Shown one piece after another: positions 39,943 to 54,791 of a DNA stretch of 64,000 nucleotides; within the stretch, counting starts at the first letter, position 1, and the number at the start of each line of letters is the position of its first letter. The notes under the pieces were generated by a model. It did no database searches. It was not told the origin of the DNA and saw only the letters and a list, made by a program, of their open reading frames with translations. The DNA lies in NCBI GenBank assembly GCA_900617105.1, contig UYFQ01000032.1, forward strand, positions 496,001-560,000, read 5' to 3'. The position numbers were made by a program, and so were the translations under genes. Source of the stretch: Hydrurus foetidus. Lineage: Eukaryota.

Positions 39943-41040
39943 ATGAAACGAGTCAAACGGGTCATCTGTGGTTTGGGCATGGTGCTTGCACTGTGCAGTT
40001 CTGCGGCATTCGCTGACGAACTTGAAGACAATTTGACAACAGTGTGGGAAAGCCTGTGGCATCAAACAGGAACGCCCATGCGCCTTGTACGCTGGGGCAA
40101 ACCCATCCAGGTCCGCTTATCAGGGCTTGATCTTGAAGTACACCGCGAGCACACATCGAAAGCTTTGCGCGAAGCAGCGACACTGACTGGGCTGCAAATA
40201 ACCGACATCAGCGAGCAAGACAGCAGCGTTGCAGAGGCGAACTTCACCATTGAGTTTGTTGATTTCAGGGCTTTGAACGAAAACGAAGGGTGCATCACCT
40301 CCGTAACCTGGAAGACCGATGGCTTGATCGACAAGGTAGCGATGAAAGCCAAAAGCGGTGAAGCTTGGCGCTGCATGTACCATGAAATCATGCACGCGAT
40401 GGGTGTGATGGGGCACCCCATCGGTAAAACCGTGCTGAGCTACTTCCCCTGGCGGCGCGATGTCTTTATGCCAATGGACGCACTGATGCTGCGCAGTTGG
40501 TACTCGCCTGAAATGAAGCCCCGCATGACGCCCCTGCAAGGGCTGGTGCTTTTGTCGGATGCGGTGGTTCAACAAACAACCCCCGCTGATCTCGCGGCAC
40601 GCACCATCCAGCAAAAATTTTTACAAACGACATTCGCGCAGATGGAAGCCTATGCAGAGGGACGAGGAGAAGTACCTCCTGTGGTCAAGCGGTCTGGCAG
40701 ATCCAGCACCCAAGCCATGCAGGCAGGCCAACTGGCCATGAGTTACTTTGTGGGCTTGGCCTATGCAGACGGCACCATCGTCCCAGTCAACTCAAGCAAA
40801 GCCGCCGTCTGGTTTGAACGCGCTGCGCGGCAAAGCCACAGTCCCTCACAAATTTTGCTGGCACGGTTGTTGGAAAAAGGGGATGGCGTAGACCGCGATC
40901 TGGTGAAAGCCTACAAATGGTTCAGTTTGGCAGCCATTCAAAAAAACAGCTTGGGCAAGCCGGGGGTGGAACGCATCGCCACTTTACTCAGTCCAGAGCA
41001 GCTTGAAGAAGCCCAAAGTCGCGTCATCGCCTTCAAATGA
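39943..41040 (+). CDS. exported zincin-like (HExxH) protein with Sel1-like repeats
   Basis: signal peptide, HEIMHAMGVMGH, C-terminal repeats (KAAVWFERAARQ, GDGVDRDLVKAYKWF). Confidence 0.7.
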   Translation: MKRVKRVICGLGMVLALCSSAAFADELEDNLTTVWESLWHQTGTPMRLVRWGKPIQVRLSGLDLEVHREHTSKALREAATLTGLQITDISEQDSSVAEANFTIEFVDFRALNENEGCITSVTWKTDGLIDKVAMKAKSGEAWRCMYHEIMHAMGVMGHPIGKTVLSYFPWRRDVFMPMDALMLRSWYSPEMKPRMTPLQGLVLLSDAVVQQTTPADLAARTIQQKFLQTTFAQMEAYAEGRGEVPPVVKRSGRSSTQAMQAGQLAMSYFVGLAYADGTIVPVNSSKAAVWFERAARQSHSPSQILLARLLEKGDGVDRDLVKAYKWFSLAAIQKNSLGKPGVERIATLLSPEQLEEAQSRVIAFK

Positions 41041-44345: not shown

Positions 44346-44400
44346 ACTGTAAATTCAATAGCAGCTACCGCTTATCTAAAAAGCGGTAAAGGCTTATTTG
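44346..44400 (+). repeat. ~55-bp dispersed motif copy (upstream of miaB)
   Basis: core ACTGTAAATTCAATAGC, CCGCTT..AAGCGG inner palindrome, TTATTT near +32. Confidence 0.75.
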
Positions 44401-44777
44401 GCTTGCAATTTGAGCGCGGCTTCTTCGGGTGTGAGCAGCCAGACTTCGTTCACCATGCCGGTGTTTTCGCGGGTGTAGTTCACCAGCAGTTTTTGCCCAA
44501 CGAGTGCGCCAGACATCACCAGCATGTTCTGCGGGCTGTGGATGCGCGCGCCGGGGGAGAGGCGGTCTGCTTTACCGTTAACCAACACCTCTGGCGGTGC
44601 AGTGACCACCAAGCTGCCGCGCTGGGTGTTACGGGGGAACTCACGCCCTACAGCAGAAGTTTGGGGGCTGGCGGCACCAGGCCATGCTGTGGCACCCAGG
44701 CAGACGATGGCTGCGCTGATGGCAACGGCGCGGACGTAAGAAAAAAGGGCACGAGGAAAGAGAAGGCAGCGGTTCAT
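44394..44777 (-). CDS. conserved exported hypothetical protein
   Basis: signal-like N-terminus, REFP, RLSPGARI, VNYT, VWLLT. Confidence 0.7.
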   Translation of the reverse strand: MNRCLLFPRALFSYVRAVAISAAIVCLGATAWPGAASPQTSAVGREFPRNTQRGSLVVTAPPEVLVNGKADRLSPGARIHSPQNMLVMSGALVGQKLLVNYTRENTGMVNEVWLLTPEEAALKLQAK

Positions 44778-44811
44778 GGTGTGTATCCAGAGGCTGAAGC
44801 AAGAGAGAGGT

Positions 44812-44841
44812 AAAAAAAAGCACCGACTAGCGGTGCTTTTT
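44812..44841. terminator. terminator downstream of tRNA-Met
   Basis: AAAAAGCACCG-loop-CGGTGCTTTTT. Confidence 0.75.
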
Positions 44842-44849
44842 AAATTTTT

Positions 44850-44926
44850 TGGTGGTGGTAGGTGGATTTGAACCACCGACTTCAGCATTATGAATGCTGC
44901 GCTCTAACCAACTGAGCTATACCACC
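44850..44926 (-). tRNA. tRNA-Met(CAT), elongator type
   Basis: acceptor GGTGGTA/TACCACC, anticodon arm CAGCA-TTCATAA-TGCTG, TTCAAAT T-loop, CCA; fully paired 1:72 so not an initiator. Confidence 0.92.
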
Positions 44927-44960: not shown

Positions 44961-47015
44961 TCAAAGCGGCGAACGCAGGTGCAACTCCGGCCGGGGATCG
45001 GCTTGGTAGGGTTGTACCGGATTGGCTTGGGCAAGGCTGCGCTCCAGCGCCGTCAACGCCTCTTGCACTTGCTGCAAGGCGCTGGCTTGCGCGGGTGACA
45101 GCACTTGGTTGGCGTGCCTGCCTGTCAGTGGGGATGCGGTCATGCTTTCAATGATGTGCGCTGACAGTTGACCGGTGTAGGGTGCGAACTGCGCTGCTTC
45201 GGTAAATCCCCCCATACGTGTACGCAGTGCCCCGACAAAGCTGTTGAAGCGCACCCAGCGGTGCTCACGCCAGCCTGGGGACTCCACGGAGCCTCTCGCC
45301 TGCGGGTCTAGGAATTTTTTGACCAATTTCTCCCCAGCGGGCCGCCCGTACTGCCCGGCCATGCGCAGAATCACTTTCCCGGAAATTTTCAAATCCAAGC
45401 CGCCTAAAACCGATGCCTCGGTATCGCTTTCAGACGCTCTTTCGCGTTCAAGCCCGATATGCACCACGCGATCACGCACGCCGGGTTGGCGCACGGAGGT
45501 GCTGTCGTTCCAACTGCGCATGGTGCCCAAAATATCGCTGAAAAAGCCGAATAACTCGTTCAGTGGCGTGGGCTTGAGGGGCGTGGCTGCACCGGGTGAA
45601 TGGGGTGGTGGTTCGTCGAACTCCTGAAGGCCATCGTCGTGCGCCTCGGTCGTCCATACAGCGTCATTGCCTCGCCCCTTGTCCAGCATGATGCCAAAGG
45701 TGGGCCAGCGGGGCAGGACGGCATCGAACTGGTGGATGGGAAAGTTGGCACACAGGCCACCGTCTGAAAACCAGCATTTGTAAAACGGATCCGCCCCTGC
45801 CACAGGTTGCGGTTTCAACGCCCACAGCGGGACAGGTTTGAACAGCACCGGAAAGCTCAGGCTCATGCGCGTAGCAACGATGATGGGCAAGTCCCCTTGG
45901 GGGAGTTCGTAGTACTCATCACCTTTGGCTGTGCCGGCCGGCTGTGGGGTATACAGGTTAGCCTTTACCTTCAAATGCCGCATCACGTCATCGGGGAAGA
46001 AGGCGGACAACTCAGCCGCTTTGAAAAACAAGCGGTTGCTGGTGCCTGCGAGCGGCAAACCGTAGGGACGGCCTTGCGTGAGGTTGCTCGTCACCATACG
46101 CAGGTCAATCGAGCGGGGGCGATGGGTGTTGGGTAGCGCCGCTGGCGAAAGCGGTGCGGGGGGCGTAGGGCCACCGGGTGCATCCCACAGGTCTTTGAAG
46201 GTAAGTACATGGCTGGATGTGCGGCCCGCTGCACCTTGAATGCCCTCGTGCAACCAGTCAATCAGCCCCTGCGGCGCACCGGCTTTGGGGCTGGTTTGCA
46301 TACCGGTACACAGGCCCACGCCGCCCGGCAACAGTCCGATTTTCACATCGCGCCAGACACCCAGCGCGATGAACACCACCATGCCGGCGAAGGCACAACC
46401 CAAACCCAACGCCAAGAGCGCGACCAAAGGAGGGATCGCCAAAGGCACCACTGGAGGCAGTACCGCCACAGCCCAACCGAAACCCAAGGTGCAGATCACG
46501 CCGACAGCAACCCCCATCCACGCCCACAACGCATAGGCGCTGAGCAGCACGTCCAAAGCGGCTTGCAAACGGGCCCATTTGGAATGGCTGGTGGGTGCGC
46601 TGCACAGCGACACGAACAAGTCGAACAGGCGCTGTGCGTGGGGGGCGGGCTGAAACAGCGAAAACAGCTTGGTGTCTTTGTTGCCGCTGCGGGGTTGCTG
46701 GCCAGGTTCCTGGGGCGCATCTTCGGCCAGCTTGAGGGGGACTTTCAGCATCACCTCGTTGAAGCCCCGCACGCTGCCATAGCGGCGGCTGTACTCCGCC
46801 GCTGCGGTCAACGCCGCCGCCAACGCCCCGACCGAGGTGCCGCCGATATTTTTGAAACGGTACTGGTGGGCCAGCGCCATGATGGCCCAGGGGTAGACCA
46901 CGCCATCGACCACACCGCCTTTCATCACCACATCGCAATAGCGGTCGATGGGGGGTTGCGCGTCTGGGTTCAGGGGCGGTGGTGGCGGGAATTCGAGCTC
47001 AGGGTTGGGGTGCAT
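44961..47015 (-). CDS. patatin-like phospholipase with inserted transmembrane hairpin
   Basis: KGGVVDG oxyanion loop, GTSVG nucleophile, SDGG catalytic Asp, RMSLSFPVLF; two hydrophobic helices; overlaps DyP 3' end. Confidence 0.85.
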   Translation of the reverse strand: MHPNPELEFPPPPPLNPDAQPPIDRYCDVVMKGGVVDGVVYPWAIMALAHQYRFKNIGGTSVGALAAALTAAAEYSRRYGSVRGFNEVMLKVPLKLAEDAPQEPGQQPRSGNKDTKLFSLFQPAPHAQRLFDLFVSLCSAPTSHSKWARLQAALDVLLSAYALWAWMGVAVGVICTLGFGWAVAVLPPVVPLAIPPLVALLALGLGCAFAGMVVFIALGVWRDVKIGLLPGGVGLCTGMQTSPKAGAPQGLIDWLHEGIQGAAGRTSSHVLTFKDLWDAPGGPTPPAPLSPAALPNTHRPRSIDLRMVTSNLTQGRPYGLPLAGTSNRLFFKAAELSAFFPDDVMRHLKVKANLYTPQPAGTAKGDEYYELPQGDLPIIVATRMSLSFPVLFKPVPLWALKPQPVAGADPFYKCWFSDGGLCANFPIHQFDAVLPRWPTFGIMLDKGRGNDAVWTTEAHDDGLQEFDEPPPHSPGAATPLKPTPLNELFGFFSDILGTMRSWNDSTSVRQPGVRDRVVHIGLERERASESDTEASVLGGLDLKISGKVILRMAGQYGRPAGEKLVKKFLDPQARGSVESPGWREHRWVRFNSFVGALRTRMGGFTEAAQFAPYTGQLSAHIIESMTASPLTGRHANQVLSPAQASALQQVQEALTALERSLAQANPVQPYQADPRPELHLRSPL

Positions 47016-48513
47016 GAGGCGTTCCCAAATCAGCAAAAACATCGCCGTCATGCATCATTTTCAAACCTTGGACACCGGGGAAAAAGGCGTACATCGTGCC
47101 CAGGGTGCGTACAAACGGCGTGAAGCCTTGAACCGACACCTGCGTGTCACCGTCGCGCTGGGGAATGTCAAAAAAGGCGGTTTTATCGCTGTGGTGACCT
47201 ATCAAGGGGTCTTTGGCGCTGCCTCGGTTGGGCACACCCATCGGGTTGGCATCGGCCCATTCGCTGAGCAAATGTTCAAACTGGTCTTCCAAGCTGGCGC
47301 AAAAAAACAAACCCAGCAGACCACGCTCGACCGGTGGGGCCGTGCTGTCGGCCTCCTCTGCCGCATTCCACACCGGGCCATAGGGGATGCCGCGCCGTAC
47401 CACGGGGCGGCGGCGGGTGGGCACCACCGCATCGGTGCGGGGGTTCATGCGGCGGATGTGGGCACCAAAGGGGCAGCCTACGCCTTCCTCGTCCTCTCTG
47501 AAATTAAAGCCGTCCAGCCCGTCCGGTGGAGGGGCGTGAGGTGACGCAGGGTGCAGCGCAGGGGCTGTGTTCTCGTCGGGCCTCACGACCTGCCCATTGC
47601 GCCAGCGACCCAGCAATTTTGCACGCAAATATTCTGGTAAAACGTTTATGTTATCTGCGTTACGTGCTACAAATTTTTCAAACTCAAGCACGTCTTGCTG
47701 CATAGGGCGGAAGGCACCAAAGCTGGCATTTTTGAAGAAACAGGCGATCTTGGCAGACTGTTCATGTGCGGGAACGCCCGACAAATCAGGCCGCTCGGTG
47801 GCCAGCCGCCATGCGTTGAAGCCTTCGTCATTCGCGTAACCCAGCAGCACTTCGCCGGGTTGGTGGGCATTCTTAGGAGATTTTGGGGAGGCACCTTGGA
47901 TGTGAACTTTCGAGATACCGTCCAGCATCCCGAAATGAACCCGCCGGGCTTTGCGGGCCTCGGGCGTGTGCTCTAGGTGCTGGCCGTCAAAGGCGTTGCG
48001 CCATCCCGCGTCAGTAAAGGCACCGTTGGCGAGCGTTTGCAGCACGGCTTGGGTAGCGTCCAGCGCCGCTGGGGTGTCCGCGTGCCACGTCAGCAAGACG
48101 TGGGCGGTGTGGGGCTCAAAAAGCGGGTTCCAAAACGTGGCCGCATTGCTGCCGGTATCGGCCAAATGCGCTGCGGCCCTGGGGTACGCCCCTTGCGCAA
48201 AGGCACGGGCTTTGTTTTGAAAGACAGCTTGGTAGCGAGGCTGAAGGCCCAAAGCGACGAGGCCGTTGAACGTCAAACCCAAGCCCACGGGGCATTGGTG
48301 CTCAGACAAGCGCTGGCTGACGTGCCTGCGGTGGTGCTCCGCCGTGGTCAGCCAGTGGTCGTGCGCCAGTTGGACGAGAAAGTCTTTGGCCAGACGCGCA
48401 TCCGCCACCGTCAGCACCACGTAGCGGCTGCAGTGCAGGTCGTAGCCCTGGAGCACCAGTTTTTGAATGTCGTTCAGCGCTAGCGTGGGCTGCGGTGTGG
48501 CGGGCGCACTCAT
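46999..48513 (-). CDS. DyP-type heme peroxidase
   Basis: HFGMLDGIS (GxxDG), CPFGAHIRRMNPR, RRGIPYG, RGLLGLFFCASLEDQFE; ATGA overlap with P450 stop. Confidence 0.88.
   Translation of the reverse strand: MSAPATPQPTLALNDIQKLVLQGYDLHCSRYVVLTVADARLAKDFLVQLAHDHWLTTAEHHRRHVSQRLSEHQCPVGLGLTFNGLVALGLQPRYQAVFQNKARAFAQGAYPRAAAHLADTGSNAATFWNPLFEPHTAHVLLTWHADTPAALDATQAVLQTLANGAFTDAGWRNAFDGQHLEHTPEARKARRVHFGMLDGISKVHIQGASPKSPKNAHQPGEVLLGYANDEGFNAWRLATERPDLSGVPAHEQSAKIACFFKNASFGAFRPMQQDVLEFEKFVARNADNINVLPEYLRAKLLGRWRNGQVVRPDENTAPALHPASPHAPPPDGLDGFNFREDEEGVGCPFGAHIRRMNPRTDAVVPTRRRPVVRRGIPYGPVWNAAEEADSTAPPVERGLLGLFFCASLEDQFEHLLSEWADANPMGVPNRGSAKDPLIGHHSDKTAFFDIPQRDGDTQVSVQGFTPFVRTLGTMYAFFPGVQGLKMMHDGDVFADLGTPHAPQP
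47628..47682 (-). repeat. ~55-bp dispersed motif copy (inside DyP gene)
   Basis: core TTTGAAAAATTTGTAGC, GC at +8/9, AC at +21/22, AATATTT at +33. Confidence 0.55.
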
Positions 48514-50426
48514 TGCTTGTGCCTGCACAGGTCATTTTGGATTTGCGCGACTTCGGCCTGGGGATAAGCGCTGAAAAAATAGTCGCCGACCGCACGCTGG
48601 TGAAAGCGCCGGATCGTGTCCACAAACTCTTTGGGGAACTCGTTCACTGGCAGAGGCGGTGCATCTTGGATGTGCTCAAAGATGCGGTCAAAGAGCGGGC
48701 CAATCTGGAGGGCAAAGTGCTCGATATAGGAATCAAAATCACGGTCGTAAATGGTGAAAAGGGCCAGTTTGCTGTCGTGGTCAAACAGCATGAACTGCGC
48801 AAAATGCACATGCTTGGCATCGATCAGTTTTTTCTCGATGCGGGGCGCACCAGCCTGGATGATCTGCTTGAGCTTTTCGGCATGCTCTGAAAGCGGCAGT
48901 TTGACGTTCATGATGACGTTCAACGGCGACTGCTTGATGACGGCTGTACGGTTGAACTCCATCGGGTAGCTTTGGCTGGTATAGCCCCACTTTTTTTGCA
49001 GCCCCAAGCGCTGGCCGGTTCTGGGGCTGATGCGCTCTGCCAAGCCTTCGAGCAGCAGGGTTTGCCGTGCAATATGGGTGATAAGCGGCATCGCCAAATG
49101 CTGGCCCACGCACTGGTGGACAAAGCTGGGGTCACTGGGGTCGCCACCAAAGATCAAGGGGTCGTAGCCTTTTCGGGTTTCGTCGAACTGATCGGCTTCT
49201 TCCGGTTGGTAGGCATTCAAGTCGCGTGTGGCCGCACCTAAGGCCAAGATGACGGTGCTGCCTGCAGGAATGGTGGGGCTACCGCCTTCCGAAAACGAAA
49301 TATCTCGCGTGGTTTTGCGCGGCAAGAAGGCTGCAGGCGGGTTGAGCCGCAGGGCTTCCCAGACAAAGGGGGTGAATGACGCATCTGGCCCGGCTCGGGT
49401 GCCTGACTGCTCTGCGGCTTTGACCGCCGCATCATGGGCGCGCTCCCACACGCCAGCGCCTGAACGAAAGAACTGGTTGATCGTCATGGCTACACCGCTT
49501 TGCACATTGCCTACGGTGCCTGCAATCAGGCCAACAACAATCACCGCCAATTCCATCGCGCTGTAGGGTTCGGGAGTCCCCGGTGTACCTTGAGCTTGTG
49601 CCATGCGCCTGAGCACAGGGCTGAAGGCCTTGAGCGGGAAAGATCGACGGGTAGGCTCGAACGCTTGCACCTCTGCCAATTCAGCGTCGATGGTGGCGAG
49701 TTCATCGGTCTGCGCCAGCCCGATAGGCGATTGGTACAGCCCGATCAAATCGGCCACCCGCTTGGCCAGTGCGCCCAAGGCAGCACTGTTTTCAGGAATC
49801 ACAAAAGGATCGGTGACGAAGTGGCGGGCATAGGTTTGGTAAGCCAGTCCGCTAGAGGCTTTGCGCAGCGCAGCTTCCAGCAGCACATGGTCAGCTTGGG
49901 CAAAGCCAAACAAAAAGCCCACAAAGCGTAAAGCTGCTTGCTCGGCCAGATCGGCCAAGTCAAACGCGCGTTGCTTGAGGGGCAGCACAGCTGCTGTCAT
50001 GAAGCTGATGCTGCACAGCGCCTCAATGGTGGGCGCATCGCAATAGAGGTAGCTTCTGGCAAACTTGTGTTGCTGGGTATGGTCAGCACCGTGGTCAAGG
50101 CCCAGCATGAACGTACCACTGCCCAAGGCTTGGTAGGGCGAATTGCTGAAATCGACCGTGCTGTTTTGGAAAGCCTGCTTCACGTGGTCTCGCACTGTGA
50201 GAAGGTAGACCGTTTGGTGAAACTGGGAGGGGGCCCTGTCTGTGGCGCTTTCTTTGACATCGGCGCGGCTCTGGAACGCCAGCACGGTGGGCGTTTTCAG
50301 CAAGCAGCGGTACAGATCCGCGCGGTCGCGGTCGTCGCTCAGCCAAGTGAACAGCAGGTGGTTGGCGTGCTGTGGATTGCGTTGGTTTGTTGCGTTGAAT
50401 TCATCGAGCTTCGTCAATGTTGTCAT
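48510..50426 (-). CDS. atypical cytochrome P450 fused to a C-terminal ~135-aa domain
   Basis: EALR (ExxR), FLPR, heme Cys HQCVGQHLA, I-helix GLIAGTVGNVQ; tail PLNVIMNV..HVHFAQF..FTIYDRDF..FFSAYP. Confidence 0.82.
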   Translation of the reverse strand: MTTLTKLDEFNATNQRNPQHANHLLFTWLSDDRDRADLYRCLLKTPTVLAFQSRADVKESATDRAPSQFHQTVYLLTVRDHVKQAFQNSTVDFSNSPYQALGSGTFMLGLDHGADHTQQHKFARSYLYCDAPTIEALCSISFMTAAVLPLKQRAFDLADLAEQAALRFVGFLFGFAQADHVLLEAALRKASSGLAYQTYARHFVTDPFVIPENSAALGALAKRVADLIGLYQSPIGLAQTDELATIDAELAEVQAFEPTRRSFPLKAFSPVLRRMAQAQGTPGTPEPYSAMELAVIVVGLIAGTVGNVQSGVAMTINQFFRSGAGVWERAHDAAVKAAEQSGTRAGPDASFTPFVWEALRLNPPAAFLPRKTTRDISFSEGGSPTIPAGSTVILALGAATRDLNAYQPEEADQFDETRKGYDPLIFGGDPSDPSFVHQCVGQHLAMPLITHIARQTLLLEGLAERISPRTGQRLGLQKKWGYTSQSYPMEFNRTAVIKQSPLNVIMNVKLPLSEHAEKLKQIIQAGAPRIEKKLIDAKHVHFAQFMLFDHDSKLALFTIYDRDFDSYIEHFALQIGPLFDRIFEHIQDAPPLPVNEFPKEFVDTIRRFHQRAVGDYFFSAYPQAEVAQIQNDLCRHKQ

Positions 50427-50459: not shown

Positions 50460-53400
50460 CTAAACCACCTGTGGCACTCCTTCAAGCATGTTCAGCAAAT
50501 GCGCTGCGGACACCCCATCATGCGTGCTCAAGTCTTCTTTCATGTTGCTCATGGCCAAGCGCAAAGCGTGTTGCGCCTCAGGAATGCGGCCTTGGCGCAT
50601 CCACAGCCGCGCCAAACTGGTGGCAGCACGCAGGGCCAGCGCATCGAGTTGACGGCTGCGGGAGAAATCCAGTGCGCTGCTGAACCAGCGCTCAGCCTCG
50701 GCTTGGCGGTCTTGGCCCTGTAGCGCCGCCGATTGCAACAGCAATTCGCCGTAAAGGCGGCGAATTTCAGGCTCGTAGTAGCGCTCGCCATAGCGTGAAA
50801 CCAAATCAAACGCGGTTTGCAGCAGCGGCAAGCCTTCAATGGGCCGCCCAGCCAGGGCATAACCTTCGGCTTGGATGGCAAGGTAAAAAGCCCGCGTCAC
50901 CACCGCCCCCGTGGCCACCCACATGCTGTAACCCTCGGCCATCTCTGCAATCCCCGCCGTAGCGTCACCCAGTTGCGCCACAGCACGGCCATGGATCAGT
51001 TTGGCATGGGCCAGCCAGACGGCAAAACCGCCTTCTTCGCAGATATCTTTGGCACGTTGCGCATCGTGCAGCGCTTGGGGGTATTCGCCGCGAAAGTAAT
51101 GCAGCATGGCTACCAGCCCAAAGGCTTCACCCTGGCTGAACTTGTGCTTAAGTTGCTCAGCCAGCGCAATGGCAGATTGCCCACGGCGCAAGGCGTCTTG
51201 CGGGTAGCCCAACTCCCATTGGGCCAAGGCGCTGTAGCACAGGCACATCACGCCGGGGTCTTGCACCGCGCCGGGGCGGTGGGCCAGCTGCTGGTAATGG
51301 GCCAGACTCTCGTCCATATGGGCCACCGCAGAGACCAACTCCCCTTGGTGGAACAAAATATTGGCGACAGCCCAGGTGGCCTGCACTTGGCGCATAGGGT
51401 CGCTGGATTGGCTGACCAAATCAGCCGCTTGGGCAGCGATGGCATGGGCTTGGCCAAAGTTACCGCGCATAAAGTGGTAGCCCTCCAGACCGAACTGCAC
51501 TTTCAGCAGCGCACGCTGGTCGCCACTGGCACGGCAAAGCACCAACGCCCGCTGGTAAATCGCCCCGACACGCTCGGCGCCATAGCCTTCGGTCGCGATG
51601 AGCTGCCCAGCCAGCAGCAGTTGCAGGCTGAGCTCGGCGCGGTCACGCTCTTGGCTGGTGGGCAGCATGTCCACCAAAGCCAAGCCCTGCCCCAAATGGC
51701 TGATCGCCTCTTCGTGGGCTGAGCGCGAGAGGGCCATGCGGGCGGCCAGCTCCCAGTGTTGCAAAGCCAGGGCGTGGATACCCGCGCCGGTGTAGTGGTA
51801 AGCCAGCATTTCGGGCTGGCTGCGTGCCAATTCAGGAAAGCACTCGTTCACGGTCAGCGCGATGGCCCGGTGAAACTTGCGGCGATCGCGCTCCCAAAGA
51901 GATTGGTAAGCGGCGTCGCGCATCAGGGCGTGCTTGAAGAAATAGCTTTTGCCTTCCCTGCCTCGCCCATCCCCGCCTCCCGCACCTTTTTGCCCCCCTT
52001 TTTCCATCAGCATGCCAGACACCACCAGCGCATGCAGTCGCCCAGCCAAGTTGTCGGCCCGCAGGGGTGAGCTGTCGTGCGCCAGCACAGCTTCCATCAA
52101 GCTCAAAGAAAACTCACGACCCATGGCGCTGCCCAGTTGGGCGATGTGTTTGGCCCCCGCCAAGCGGTCAAGCCGCGCCATCAGCAGGTCTTGTATCGTG
52201 CCAGGCACGGTAAGCGTGAGGGTGGATACGCCGTCGCGAAGGTCATCGGCTTCCCCAGCGGGACTGATGGCGGTACTGCTGTGGACCACGTTGTCGGCTT
52301 TGAGATCGAGCAGCATGCGGGCCGATTCTTCGATAAACAGGGGCACGCCATCGGCCTTGTCCGCCAATAGCCGAATCGCTTCGCTTGGCAACGGGAAATC
52401 GCCGTAGATGCTTCGGATCATGCTCTGGGTAGCCTCAGGTGTCAGGCCTTTCAACTCCATTTCTTTGACGGCAAAATCAGGCTTTCGCCCCGCTGCAGCT
52501 TCGGTACGTTGGGTGAGCAACAACATCAAAGGCAGGTCTGTGGAAGCCAGTACCACCTGCTTAAGCAGCTCTCGACTGGACGGGTCTAGCCACTGCACGT
52601 CTTCAACCACCAAGCACATGGGGGCGCGGCGTGCCTCTTGGGTAATCCAGCTCACCAGAACTTGGATGGTCACTTGACGTTGCTTTTCGGTAGAAATTTG
52701 GGCCTCTGCTGCCGCGTCACTCCCTGTGGCCGTAGGGCTGAGCTCCTGCGGTATGCCCAAAAGCATGGCCATGGCGTTGAGCGCAGCCAAAGTGTCAAAG
52801 GGAATACGGTGCTCCGTGCGTCGCTCAATACCGCCGAAGACCGTGTCCAAACGCAAACCGGCCTCCAGTTTGGTCAGTTTTTGGACTGCGGTATCGGATT
52901 CTTGAATCTTCAACCAGCGTCGCAGCAAATCCGTAACAGGTCTGAAGGCGCTGTTGGCATGGTCAGGGGTACAGCGGCACTCCCGCGTCAGGTGATTGCG
53001 GGCTATGAGCGCATGCCGAAACTCACGCACCAGCCGGGTTTTACCTATGCCGGCTTCACCCGACACCAAAACGGCTATCCCCGTGCTCTGGCAGGTTTGT
53101 GACCAGCGCTCTTGCAACCAGCCCAGCTCGCGTGCGCGGCCCACGAAGCGGGTGGGTAGTGGCGCTGATTCAGGTGGACTGCTGTAGGCTTGGCGCTCGC
53201 CCAGCAGGCGGTAGGCGGTGCCAGGGCGGTCAATGCCCTTGAGCAGAGGCACCTGCTCCAAAGGTGAAAAATCGAATTGAAGCTTCACTATTTGGCGTGT
53301 GGATTCGCTGACCACCGCTGTTCCCGGTGCCGCAATAGACTGCAAGCGTGCAGCAAAGTGAATCGCTACACCCACCGGCATACCAGCCTTGACGGCGACC

Positions 53401-54791
53401 GATCCCGTCACAATGCCAATGCGAATGCGCAGTTGCAATTGGGCCACCGCCTCCACCATCTCCAGCGCAGCGCGCAAGCACTGTGCGGCGGCGTTTTCAA
53501 AGGCCACGTGCAGGCCAAAGTAACACATCACGCCATCACTGCCCTGTGGATCGTTGGCCACCCCACCCCACTTCACCACAATTTGGGCGCAGCAGGCGTG
53601 GTAGTTGTCCAGCACATCGCTGTACTTCTCTGGCCCCAGTGCATTCAGCAGCTTGGTGGAATCCACCAAATCGTAAGACAACACCGTGACCTGCCGCTGG
53701 TTGTTGACCTCTTGCGGTGGGAGGGTCGGTTGGGCCACGACCGCTGTAGCATCACCGTACAGCGAGGTGTCCAGACAGGCCGATACGGACAGTGTGGCTG
53801 AGCCCTGCGTCACCAAAGCCGCATCGCGCAGTGCTCCACCCAAACTCGCGCCCCGCGCCAAGGCTTTGTAAAACTCGGCCATGTAGCTGGGTTGGTCATC
53901 GCCTGCGAGCAAGGTGTTGCGAAACAAGGCGCTCAAACCTGCGCGGCTGATGCTACTGGCCAGCAGTGCATGGTCATCCCGTGCCCGATGCAGAGTGCTG
54001 GTGAGTGCTTGAGGCGCGCGGCCCATGTCGGTATCGGTACGCTCGAAAATAAGCAGCGCCGGTGGCAAGGCCAAACCTGACAGTTCATGCACCGACACAG
54101 CCCCCGTGCCCGGCTCACCTGCCGCAGGGCGTACCGTGGCAACCAAAGGGCCAATGCAGTGAACGACATCGCTTTCGCCTACCAACCGCAGCAGCTGGGC
54201 ATGGGCCAGCTCATAGGCCACCAAACCTTTGACCGAAATGCCCTCTACCCCTTCCAAGCGACGCAGCAGGCCCTGGGCATACAGGTGGCCAAAGTGCAGC
54301 TCATCGTCCGTGTGAACCACCAGCACCTTGAGTTCATCCACCACCGTTCGGATGGGGGATGGGGCGGTGGCCGGCTGGTCTGACAGCAGATACCGCGAGA
54401 CCACAAACTTATGGCCCCAAAACTGCTGGCCATCAAAGGCTGCTTCCCAGGGGACGGGCTGCAAAGCCTCGTTGATTTGCAAGAACAAGGGCCGCTCTGG
54501 GCTTTCCACCAAAAAGAGACCGATGGATGGTGGCACCAGCCGTGAAAAAATCAGCTGACCCAAGCGGTGAATCCGGTCGTCTTGGCTGCTGTAGTCTGTT
54601 TCCTCGAACGAAGGGGCGGAGGGTTGACGAAGCAGCATCGCCGCTTCAGTCGTGATGTCGTCGAGCGCAGCCGCACTGACAGCGATGACCCCTATGCGCC
54701 CCACGGTGCGCGAATCACTCAGCGATGCCGAGACAAAGCCATGCTCCCACATCAAAGTGAGGCTGATAGGGCGAATGTCAGGGCTGTGCAT
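50460..54791 (-). CDS. multidomain sensor: degenerate CHAT + class III cyclase + AAA/STAND-like NTPase + TPR-like repeats
   Basis: VPWEAAFD/VVHCIG/EFYKAL/LYGD (CHAT-like); RQVTVLSYDLVDST, GSDGVMCYFG, AARLQ (cyclase); FVGRARE, GEAGIGKT, VVEDVQW, DGVPLFIEE, FKHALMRDAAY; helical C-terminus. Confidence 0.85.
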   Translation of the reverse strand: MHSPDIRPISLTLMWEHGFVSASLSDSRTVGRIGVIAVSAAALDDITTEAAMLLRQPSAPSFEETDYSSQDDRIHRLGQLIFSRLVPPSIGLFLVESPERPLFLQINEALQPVPWEAAFDGQQFWGHKFVVSRYLLSDQPATAPSPIRTVVDELKVLVVHTDDELHFGHLYAQGLLRRLEGVEGISVKGLVAYELAHAQLLRLVGESDVVHCIGPLVATVRPAAGEPGTGAVSVHELSGLALPPALLIFERTDTDMGRAPQALTSTLHRARDDHALLASSISRAGLSALFRNTLLAGDDQPSYMAEFYKALARGASLGGALRDAALVTQGSATLSVSACLDTSLYGDATAVVAQPTLPPQEVNNQRQVTVLSYDLVDSTKLLNALGPEKYSDVLDNYHACCAQIVVKWGGVANDPQGSDGVMCYFGLHVAFENAAAQCLRAALEMVEAVAQLQLRIRIGIVTGSVAVKAGMPVGVAIHFAARLQSIAAPGTAVVSESTRQIVKLQFDFSPLEQVPLLKGIDRPGTAYRLLGERQAYSSPPESAPLPTRFVGRARELGWLQERWSQTCQSTGIAVLVSGEAGIGKTRLVREFRHALIARNHLTRECRCTPDHANSAFRPVTDLLRRWLKIQESDTAVQKLTKLEAGLRLDTVFGGIERRTEHRIPFDTLAALNAMAMLLGIPQELSPTATGSDAAAEAQISTEKQRQVTIQVLVSWITQEARRAPMCLVVEDVQWLDPSSRELLKQVVLASTDLPLMLLLTQRTEAAAGRKPDFAVKEMELKGLTPEATQSMIRSIYGDFPLPSEAIRLLADKADGVPLFIEESARMLLDLKADNVVHSSTAISPAGEADDLRDGVSTLTLTVPGTIQDLLMARLDRLAGAKHIAQLGSAMGREFSLSLMEAVLAHDSSPLRADNLAGRLHALVVSGMLMEKGGQKGAGGGDGRGREGKSYFFKHALMRDAAYQSLWERDRRKFHRAIALTVNECFPELARSQPEMLAYHYTGAGIHALALQHWELAARMALSRSAHEEAISHLGQGLALVDMLPTSQERDRAELSLQLLLAGQLIATEGYGAERVGAIYQRALVLCRASGDQRALLKVQFGLEGYHFMRGNFGQAHAIAAQAADLVSQSSDPMRQVQATWAVANILFHQGELVSAVAHMDESLAHYQQLAHRPGAVQDPGVMCLCYSALAQWELGYPQDALRRGQSAIALAEQLKHKFSQGEAFGLVAMLHYFRGEYPQALHDAQRAKDICEEGGFAVWLAHAKLIHGRAVAQLGDATAGIAEMAEGYSMWVATGAVVTRAFYLAIQAEGYALAGRPIEGLPLLQTAFDLVSRYGERYYEPEIRRLYGELLLQSAALQGQDRQAEAERWFSSALDFSRSRQLDALALRAATSLARLWMRQGRIPEAQHALRLAMSNMKEDLSTHDGVSAAHLLNMLEGVPQVV

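Follow-up and report, generated by a model that had tools for sequence, protein, structure and literature searches.

Canonical cytochrome P450 monooxygenases carry an acid–alcohol pair, (D/E)-T, in the I-helix (PMC12937128). Prostacyclin synthase (CYP8A1) has the motif ATQGN287, its Asn occupying the position that in thromboxane synthase comes after AGYE, and the motif of the fungal 5,8-linoleate diol synthases (LDS) is GMxxN887QxQ (PMC13049297). For the P450s of fungal LDS and epoxy alcohol synthases (EAS), Table 3 of the same paper gives FML in substrate recognition site (SRS) 1a and LPR in SRS5, and its text gives HxC. The haem-binding loop of CYP74 enzymes contains an insert of nine residues (PMC10813956). 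Here, we compare with these systems a P450 encoded in contig UYFQ01000032.1 of the Hydrurus foetidus assembly GCA_900617105.1, positions 496,001–560,000; this 64-kb stretch is called the window, and positions below are those within it. The P450 is the second gene of a co-directional four-gene cassette, in the order cyclase–STAND, P450, DyP-type haem peroxidase (DyP), patatin.

This bacterial P450 likely rearranges fatty-acid hydroperoxides, given the replacement of the acid–Thr pair by Gly-Asn and the fusion of its closest relatives to cyclooxygenase-like (COX-like) enzymes. By analogy, it most likely works like the P450 half of the fungal Ppo enzymes or like prostacyclin synthase. That it uses a lipid hydroperoxide, as a predicted isomerase with no redox partner, we consider probable; the complete reading, a Gly-Asn haem-thiolate P450 that, needing neither NAD(P)H nor ferredoxin, would convert a fatty-acid hydroperoxide in one step of a predicted bacterial oxylipin pathway, could equally well hold or fail.

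Protein, fold and conservation

The protein comprises a P450 part (residues about 1–495) and a fused 140-aa C-terminal domain (residues about 496–638; below, the C-domain), overlooked in the original prediction made from the same sequence (Table 1). The AlphaFold2 (AF2) model has a mean predicted local distance difference test score of 92.7 and a long I helix at residues 290–321. In the fold search, the P450 core alone matched bacterial P450 structures with Z about 30; the fold match with Z 30 extends across approximately 375 residues with a root-mean-square deviation of about 3. The fold and the proximal Cys place the protein in the cytochrome P450 superfamily.

Conservation was assessed in the query plus 120 listed of 178 homologues (121 listed proteins) and in a wider set of 230 aligned proteins, and the cassette itself was surveyed by a scan of GTDB genomes, yielding 58 loci, 57 of them with the P450 core. 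Gly299, Gly303, Asn307, His437, and Cys439 are invariant among the 121 listed proteins. Since Asn307 and Cys439 are both kept in 121 out of 121, the I-helix and Cys features are not due to chance. Searches for stand-alone or longer relatives with word indices returned almost exclusively the family itself.

Several members of the family differ in gene structure. Assemblies L037 and L050 show interruptions in the P450 reading frame, longer forms contain the C-domain twice (L018, L019, L023, L056, and P0224), and in the complete genome with locus L036 (G003:C1:4322156-4323430) cyclase–STAND and P450 share one open frame of 1936 codons.

Table 1. Cassette genes and P450 features in the window.
Feature	Position	Strand	Remarks
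Class III cyclase-like + STAND NTPase + TPR protein, 1443 aa, first cassette gene	50460..54791	minus	
P450 + C-terminal alpha/beta domain, 638 aa	48510..50426	minus	Pfam p450 above cut-off (E 1.4e-8), AF2, fold search
F106-M107-L108	50103..50111	minus	Near-invariant: 120, 119, 120 of 121 listed proteins
I-helix G299-Q309, GLIAGTVGNVQ	49500..49532	minus	Translation, conservation, alignments
Asn307 codon	49506-49508	minus	Column of conserved Thr
F367-L-P-R370	49317..49328	minus	Resembles SRS5 (A)LPR of fungal LDS
Haem-binding loop F426-C439, FGGDPSDPSFVHQC	49110..49151	minus	6-residue insert; Cys439, predicted thiolate ligand
C-domain, no named family	48513..48941	minus	Predicted beta-alpha-beta-beta-alpha; invariant His541, no conserved Cys
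DyP-type haem peroxidase, third cassette gene	46999..48528	minus	Asp203, Arg378, His357 kept
Patatin-like phospholipase	44961..47051	minus	GxSxG (Ser73), DGG (Asp430), hydrophobic stretch about 168–230

I-helix register and Cys loop

The original prediction described an I-helix with no acid–Thr pair and with Asn near its site, and translation of residues 299–309 bears this out. Fourteen ordinary P450s from the genome searches were included in a multiple alignment, and in it G303-T304-V305-G306-N307 matches A-G-x-(E/D)-T: the column of Asn307 contains Thr in 13 sequences out of 14, that of Gly306, Asp or Glu in 12, and that of Thr304, Gly in all 14. Comparison by hhalign with a relative from Methylobacterium in which Glu-Thr is retained gives the same register; in a single gapped local alignment with CYP51 the register is shifted by one residue, with Gly306 on Thr. 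As Gly306 and Asn307 fill the columns of the acid and the Thr, both residues of the pair are replaced. Asn307 is kept in all listed proteins and in 227 of 230 in the wider set; it is followed, among the 121 listed, by Val (74) or Ile (41) at position 308, Gln (102) at 309, and Ala (94) at 310.

Thr304, the T of AGT, was also considered for the catalytic role and rejected, being variable (Thr in 67/121 listed proteins and 122/230 in the wider set) and falling in the Gly column; judging by the alignment, it is not the catalytic Thr. A canonical Thr at the oxygen-activation site, sought as evidence against the prediction, was seen neither in the multiple alignment nor with hhalign.

The Cys pocket was correctly described as about six residues longer than FGxGxHxCxG: from Phe to Cys there are 14 residues here (426–439) versus eight in FGxGxHxC, and the pocket, HQC, is of the bacterial HxC type. 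The Phe-to-Cys span ranges from 9 to 21 in the 121 listed proteins and up to 23 in the family, three distant members having the canonical eight residues; across the family, the insert amounts to 0–15 unconserved residues. As its length varies and some members lack it, the loop carries no CYP74 signal.

Nearly all P450s share the ExxR motif of the K-helix (residues 357–360), but many relatives have it in degenerate form: in loci L001–L057, Glu is retained in 25/57 and Arg in 36/57.

Comparison with CYP74, prostacyclin synthase and fungal Ppo enzymes

With the CYP74 clan this P450 shares the missing acid–Thr pair, an I-helix Asn, a longer Cys loop, and predicted independence of O2 and redox partners. 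The differences lie in the loop insert, six residues here and 0–15 in the family rather than a fixed nine, and in the Asn of plant allene oxide synthases (AOS), situated about seven residues earlier, as judged from the motif in PMC13049297. The residue seven positions before Asn307 is Leu300 (Leu in 88, Met in 18, and Ser in 12 of the 121 listed proteins), not an Asn of the CYP74 N321 type, which precedes the GGxKI groove. CYP74 enzymes are absent from the best 50–60 rows of the PDB sequence and fold searches, a result that leaves room for kinship. Membership in CYP74 was rejected on the insert length and the Asn register, and the CYP74 likeness put forward initially does not stand, since the Asn is at the Thr position rather than seven residues earlier and the Cys-loop insert is variable or absent. 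As far as the alignment tells, the register of Asn307 is that of prostacyclin synthase and fungal Ppo enzymes and differs from the CYP74 type.

CYP8A1 has the same T-x-G-N arrangement with Asn at the Thr position (motif printed in PMC13049297). It differs in that the protein studied here has a bacterial-type fold and the HxC pocket, and the CYP8A1 substrate is an endoperoxide; it is not among the best 60 sequence matches or the best 50 fold matches.

The likeness to fungal Ppo P450s (5,8- and 7,8-LDS, 10R-EAS, 8- and 9-AOS), also suggested in the original prediction, holds at the level of the motifs given in PMC13049297, namely FML, Gxxx-N, LPR, and HxC, these being short motifs compared by eye. 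Moreover, the domain fused to the sister-clade P450s (see below) belongs to the same Pfam peroxidase–cyclooxygenase family as in Ppo. However, Ppo enzymes have an N-terminal haem dioxygenase, whereas the protein in the window has no An_peroxidase domain, its P450 being fused to the C-domain and paired with DyP; in the bacterial-type COX fusions the order is reversed, with the P450 at the N-terminus. The dioxygenase (DOX)–P450 fusions mentioned in PMC4420034 are fungal only, and no bacterial members were found in the accessible part of PMC11719350.

COX-like fusions and phylogeny

A profile search of 1.84 billion representatives yielded 104 matches at E up to 1e-30, with 150 listed. Thirty long or distant proteins, 28 of them from the 150 listed, were scanned for additional domains, and six combine a P450 of this kind with an An_peroxidase domain. 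LYRWH, the Tyr-radical/proximal-His site, and FAQW(F/V)(T/S)D(S/G)F are kept in all six fusions, and DA(F/L)xQ, in five; the motifs of the Nostoc linoleate 10S-dioxygenase are FtdsF, FxxxY342, and DAFxQ (PMC13049297). One of the fusions, compared with PDB, has COX-2 as its best matches (E 2e-68).

Five out of the six fusions have Asp/Glu-Asn in the I-helix and fall within a clade sister to the P450 family. The sister grouping has support of 1.0 with FastTree on 92 rows, SH-aLRT support of 100 on 64 rows, support of 100/99 on 42 rows, and support of 100 under the LG+C20 mixture model; the rows were thinned by hand, and the trees hold no CYP74, CYP8, or fungal Ppo sequence. Grouping of the family with other C-domain P450s was rejected (p 1.9e-5).

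The six fusions (P0258, P0262, P0267, P0277, P0287, and P0292) have a domain order reverse to that of fungal Ppo, and such fusions arose in at least two P450 branches.

Partner genes of relatives

Two surveys of genomic neighborhoods were performed. In the first one, the family profile run on 401 Pseudomonadota genomes found seven distant relatives, five of them beside or fused to DyP and two beside a di-haem cytochrome c peroxidase gene (NF040606); the best plasmid match is also beside an NF040606 gene, with a weak patatin match next door. In the second survey, the profile of these eight proteins was run on 401 and 301 further genomes, and 12 new clade members were chosen by score or by a partial high-scoring match before their neighbors were inspected. 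Eleven of them have a DyP (eight) or di-haem (three) gene within approximately 6 kb, and the twelfth is a 135-aa fragment. Within 1.5 kb, DyP, a di-haem gene, or the C-domain was observed for 10/12 new members versus 0/43 ordinary P450s; one more clade-like row (L124) has no partner at this distance. On the tree, at least four switches of partner type can be counted. Near related modules, other lipases stand in the place of patatin: Lipase_3 at two loci and an LCAT-like protein at one.

Considered from the DyP side, 15 of the 24 DyP loci outside the family contain a clade P450, and five, a catalase-related gene. No di-haem gene occurs in these 24 loci, and a COX-like gene beside DyP was found in 0/57 cassette loci and 0/24 other DyP loci.

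Two described bacterial systems have a similar two-step producer–consumer logic, namely, the 10S-dioxygenase of Nostoc punctiforme with its catalase-related hydroperoxide lyase, and PA2077/PA2078 (FadCcp) of Pseudomonas aeruginosa. The COX-like domains fused to the sister P450s share motifs with the former. The NF040606 proteins beside the relatives are RoxA-like and on this ground probably resemble PA2077/PA2078 (PMC4496055). In contrast to both systems, the consumer here is a P450, and DyP is the only candidate producer.

The C-terminal domain

The C-domain has no match in Pfam, NCBIfam, or PDB, where the fold search did not use the C-domain alone, and no homology to DyP by hhalign; in the Atlas, it matches unnamed clusters only (0.89–0.90). 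A fused ferredoxin, considered as its identity, was rejected, as there is no conserved Cys and no family match. In Deinococcus, Rhodococcus, Sphingomonas, and Gloeothece records the domain is encoded by a separate gene before DyP, five proteins of the P450 family join P450, C-domain, and DyP in one chain, and the P450–COX fusions lack the domain: it travels with DyP, not with the P450.

The Deinococcus radiodurans DyP locus, consisting of genes for a small protein, DyP, and a catalase-family protein, has the same C-domain and the same DyP subfamily, whose best PDB matches are 8re3/8re2 (E 4e-30). It differs by a catalase-related gene in the place of the P450 and shows no patatin or cyclase–STAND within the 16 kb displayed.

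In Deinococcus, Rhodococcus, Sphingomonas, and two more genomes (L061:7800-11033, L062:7896-11178, L063:6634-9834; also L200 and L203), the C-domain gene and DyP form a triad with the gene for a small catalase-family protein, and some of these triads have thioesterase or fatty-acid oxidation genes as neighbors.

Source of the hydroperoxide

Candidate producers were sought in the genomes of relatives; these comprised 50 of the 57 genomes with the cassette, many being incomplete. Weak lipoxygenase matches were found in 3/50 cassette genomes, and the di-haem query matched 9/50; the closest relative (72% identity) has no lipoxygenase, COX-like, or di-haem match in its genome. COX-, catalase-, or lipoxygenase-like matches occur neither in the 57 loci nor in the window. 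Hence, if the P450 requires a hydroperoxide, the latter is either made by DyP or formed chemically.

DyP is proposed as the dioxygenase because it takes the fusion slot of the COX-like domain and because the partner type switches between relatives. From this genomic context, we tentatively suggest that DyP may make the hydroperoxide, an assignment on the doubtful side. In the lipid-peroxide repair alternative, the substrate is a membrane hydroperoxide formed chemically, by singlet oxygen or radicals, with no enzyme making it: patatin would excise it, and DyP would reduce and the P450 rearrange it, with the P450 chemistry unchanged. Retention of the Asp, Arg, and His of ordinary peroxidases by DyP and the lack of known dioxygenases in most cassette genomes agree with repair, as does the relief of hydroperoxide toxicity by a diol synthase (PMC4496055). 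Still, the position of DyP in the C-terminal slot of the COX-like fusions and its lack of co-occurrence with COX-like genes better fit a substitute producer, and the tight link to cyclase–STAND suggests signalling, so we regard repair as unlikely.

Separate clusters with a full An_peroxidase gene and a weak lipoxygenase match were observed at G436:C37:8129-10821 and G441:C1:62249-67147, the latter also with a di-haem motif; a few cassette-bearing genomes have such clusters.

Redox partners and other P450 chemistries

The prediction that the P450 has no redox partner holds for the cassette in the window and fails for the family as a whole, as ferredoxin adjoins 10/57 loci. None of the four cassette genes encodes a ferredoxin or a reductase, and in the window a query with plant-type ferredoxin, the one type searched for, found nothing; the count in the loci was made by tblastn, likewise with one plant-type query. 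All ten ferredoxin loci belong to the Rhodoferax/Albidiferax type, share the same genomic site, and lack patatin.

These data bear on a second alternative, an ordinary ferredoxin-dependent monooxygenase with an odd I-helix and borrowed electron donors, acting on a lipid or another substrate. CYP7A1, CYP8B1, and P450cin have Asn at this position and use reductases. The best-matching solved folds are ordinary bacterial monooxygenases, one lineage has the ferredoxin gene beside the cassette, and P450eryF functions without the Thr (PMC12937128). Nevertheless, here both the acid and the Thr are lost, such a ferredoxin was not found in 47/57 loci or in the window, and the clade-wide link to haem peroxidase or dioxygenase genes is not seen for ordinary P450s, making a monooxygenase quite unlikely.

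Absence of the acid–Thr pair and of redox partners would also be expected of a peroxide-shunt enzyme. An H2O2-driven, CYP152-like peroxygenase might thus act on fatty acids released by patatin, with DyP guarding against excess H2O2; CYP152N1 is at rank 35 of the Foldseek matches, and lipase genes are neighbors. Yet the Arg–Pro pair of the CYP152 I-helix is not conserved in residues 299–312, the cassette contains no H2O2-forming oxidase, and the sister clade is fused to COX-like domains; we consider a peroxygenase very unlikely.

Returning to the hydroperoxide-rearranging P450, several observations weigh against it or against its proposed partner. According to PMC13049297, several enzymes can do without the Asn, and its presence settles neither the type of reaction nor whether scission is homolytic or heterolytic; the sequence here is NVQS versus NQxQ in LDS. 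Placement of the family on the ordinary-P450 side of the tree stays unrejected (approximately unbiased test, p 0.06), and several partner-linked relatives keep Glu-Thr, so that motif and partner are not tied one to one. Regarding the producer, 4/24 C-domain/DyP loci have neither a P450 nor a catalase-related partner, 11/50 cassette genomes have an An_peroxidase match elsewhere, and a distant di-haem-like pair lies near 2/57 cassettes, on the other strand. DyP here retains the normal peroxidase residues, and no published case of a DyP acting on fatty acids as a dioxygenase was found, in a search reaching few subscription journals. Finally, in the ten loci mentioned, cyclase–STAND is immediately preceded by a gene for a plant-type [2Fe-2S] ferredoxin; in 12 of 16 genomes of that genus a close ferredoxin accompanies the cassette, and in the remaining four a more distant ferredoxin has no cassette nearby, hence it cannot be dismissed as a bystander.

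Taken with the COX-fused sister clade and the partner genes, the claim of a P450 other than a monooxygenase with a fatty-acid hydroperoxide as the substrate gains support and stands as a predicted activity.

Proposed pathway and implications

In the proposed pathway, patatin would first free an unsaturated fatty acid from a membrane lipid, and DyP with the small C-domain might add O2 to yield the hydroperoxide, a role suggested by the equivalence of gene slots. The P450 would then bind the hydroperoxide over the haem, with the O–O bond positioned by Asn307, and the product would more likely be a diol or an epoxy alcohol than an allene oxide, as for fungal LDS and EAS. A link to signalling may be provided by the cyclase–STAND protein, joined in some lineages by a Crp regulator.

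More speculatively, the widespread P450 clade could be a hydroperoxide-rearranging module with three interchangeable haem dioxygenases (COX-like, RoxA-like di-haem, and DyP with its accessory domain), DyP with the C-domain a fatty-acid dioxygenase, and the cassette a self-contained oxylipin signalling circuit of free-living Betaproteobacteria; we hold this broader scheme to be possible but rather doubtful. If true, DyP with the C-domain would represent a fold from which dioxygenation of fatty acids is not known, and the circuit would consist of a lipase, a dioxygenase, an isomerase, and a cyclase–STAND receptor or regulator. Few bacterial oxylipin enzymes have been described, and fatty-acid oxygenation by a DyP subfamily is a prediction both specific and cheap to test. 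The clade supplies soluble P450s of small size whose Asn stands in the register seen in prostacyclin synthase and the fungal diol synthases, and its natural variants at one site (Gly-Asn, Asp-Asn, Pro-Thr, and Glu-Thr) could serve to probe what steers O–O scission. The bacterial-type counterparts with reversed domain order bear on the origin of fungal Ppo enzymes.

Cassette composition and distribution

The 57 loci come nearly all from Betaproteobacteria, and no description of the cassette was found in the literature searched, which took in a minority of subscription journals and no supplements. Leptothrix discophora, Pseudaquabacterium inlustre, and Rhodoferax sp. OV413 are cultured bacteria that carry it. 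DyP follows the P450 in 53/53 loci, the remaining four reaching a contig edge; in the window, the DyP start codon (ATG at 48513) shares bases with the P450 stop codon, in the form ATGA. Cyclase–STAND is adjacent in 55/55 loci (54 by tblastn and one by Pfam; two others are incomplete), and patatin is present in 37/51 loci with enough sequence. Recent acquisition of the cassette was considered and is disfavored, its G+C content, 0.59–0.62, being that of the flanks.

Catalytic residues are well conserved. In DyP, Asp203 (GxxDG), Arg378 (distal), and His357 (proximal) are kept in 51/51 and identify it as DyP-type, although its match to TIGR01413 (E 2.7e-17) is below the cut-off of the model. In patatin, Ser73 is kept in 30/31 and Asp430 in 31/31, and in the cyclase, Asp374 and Asp419 are kept in 52/52.

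The cyclase has His in 49/52 sequences where class III cyclases usually carry Asn, and a QG(D/S/N)DG loop replaces their usual Lys motif, which may mean a different activity or base specificity. In the cyclase–STAND protein, the first 350 aa have no Pfam match and resemble a degenerate CHAT domain. The cassette does not correspond to a known anti-phage system in the PADLOC 2023 models, with 0 matches for P450, DyP, and patatin and weak PycC matches over the cyclase domain.

The cassette is adjoined by a Crp-family regulator in 17 loci and by a LuxR-like helix-turn-helix protein in 18, neither occurring in the window (L007, L012–L017, L020–L022, L029, L030, L033, L034, L041, L048, L055, and L056). 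In the window, a 164-aa open reading frame with no family lies between the cassette and miaB (44394–44888), and a DUF2927 + Sel1 protein is encoded at 39943–41040.

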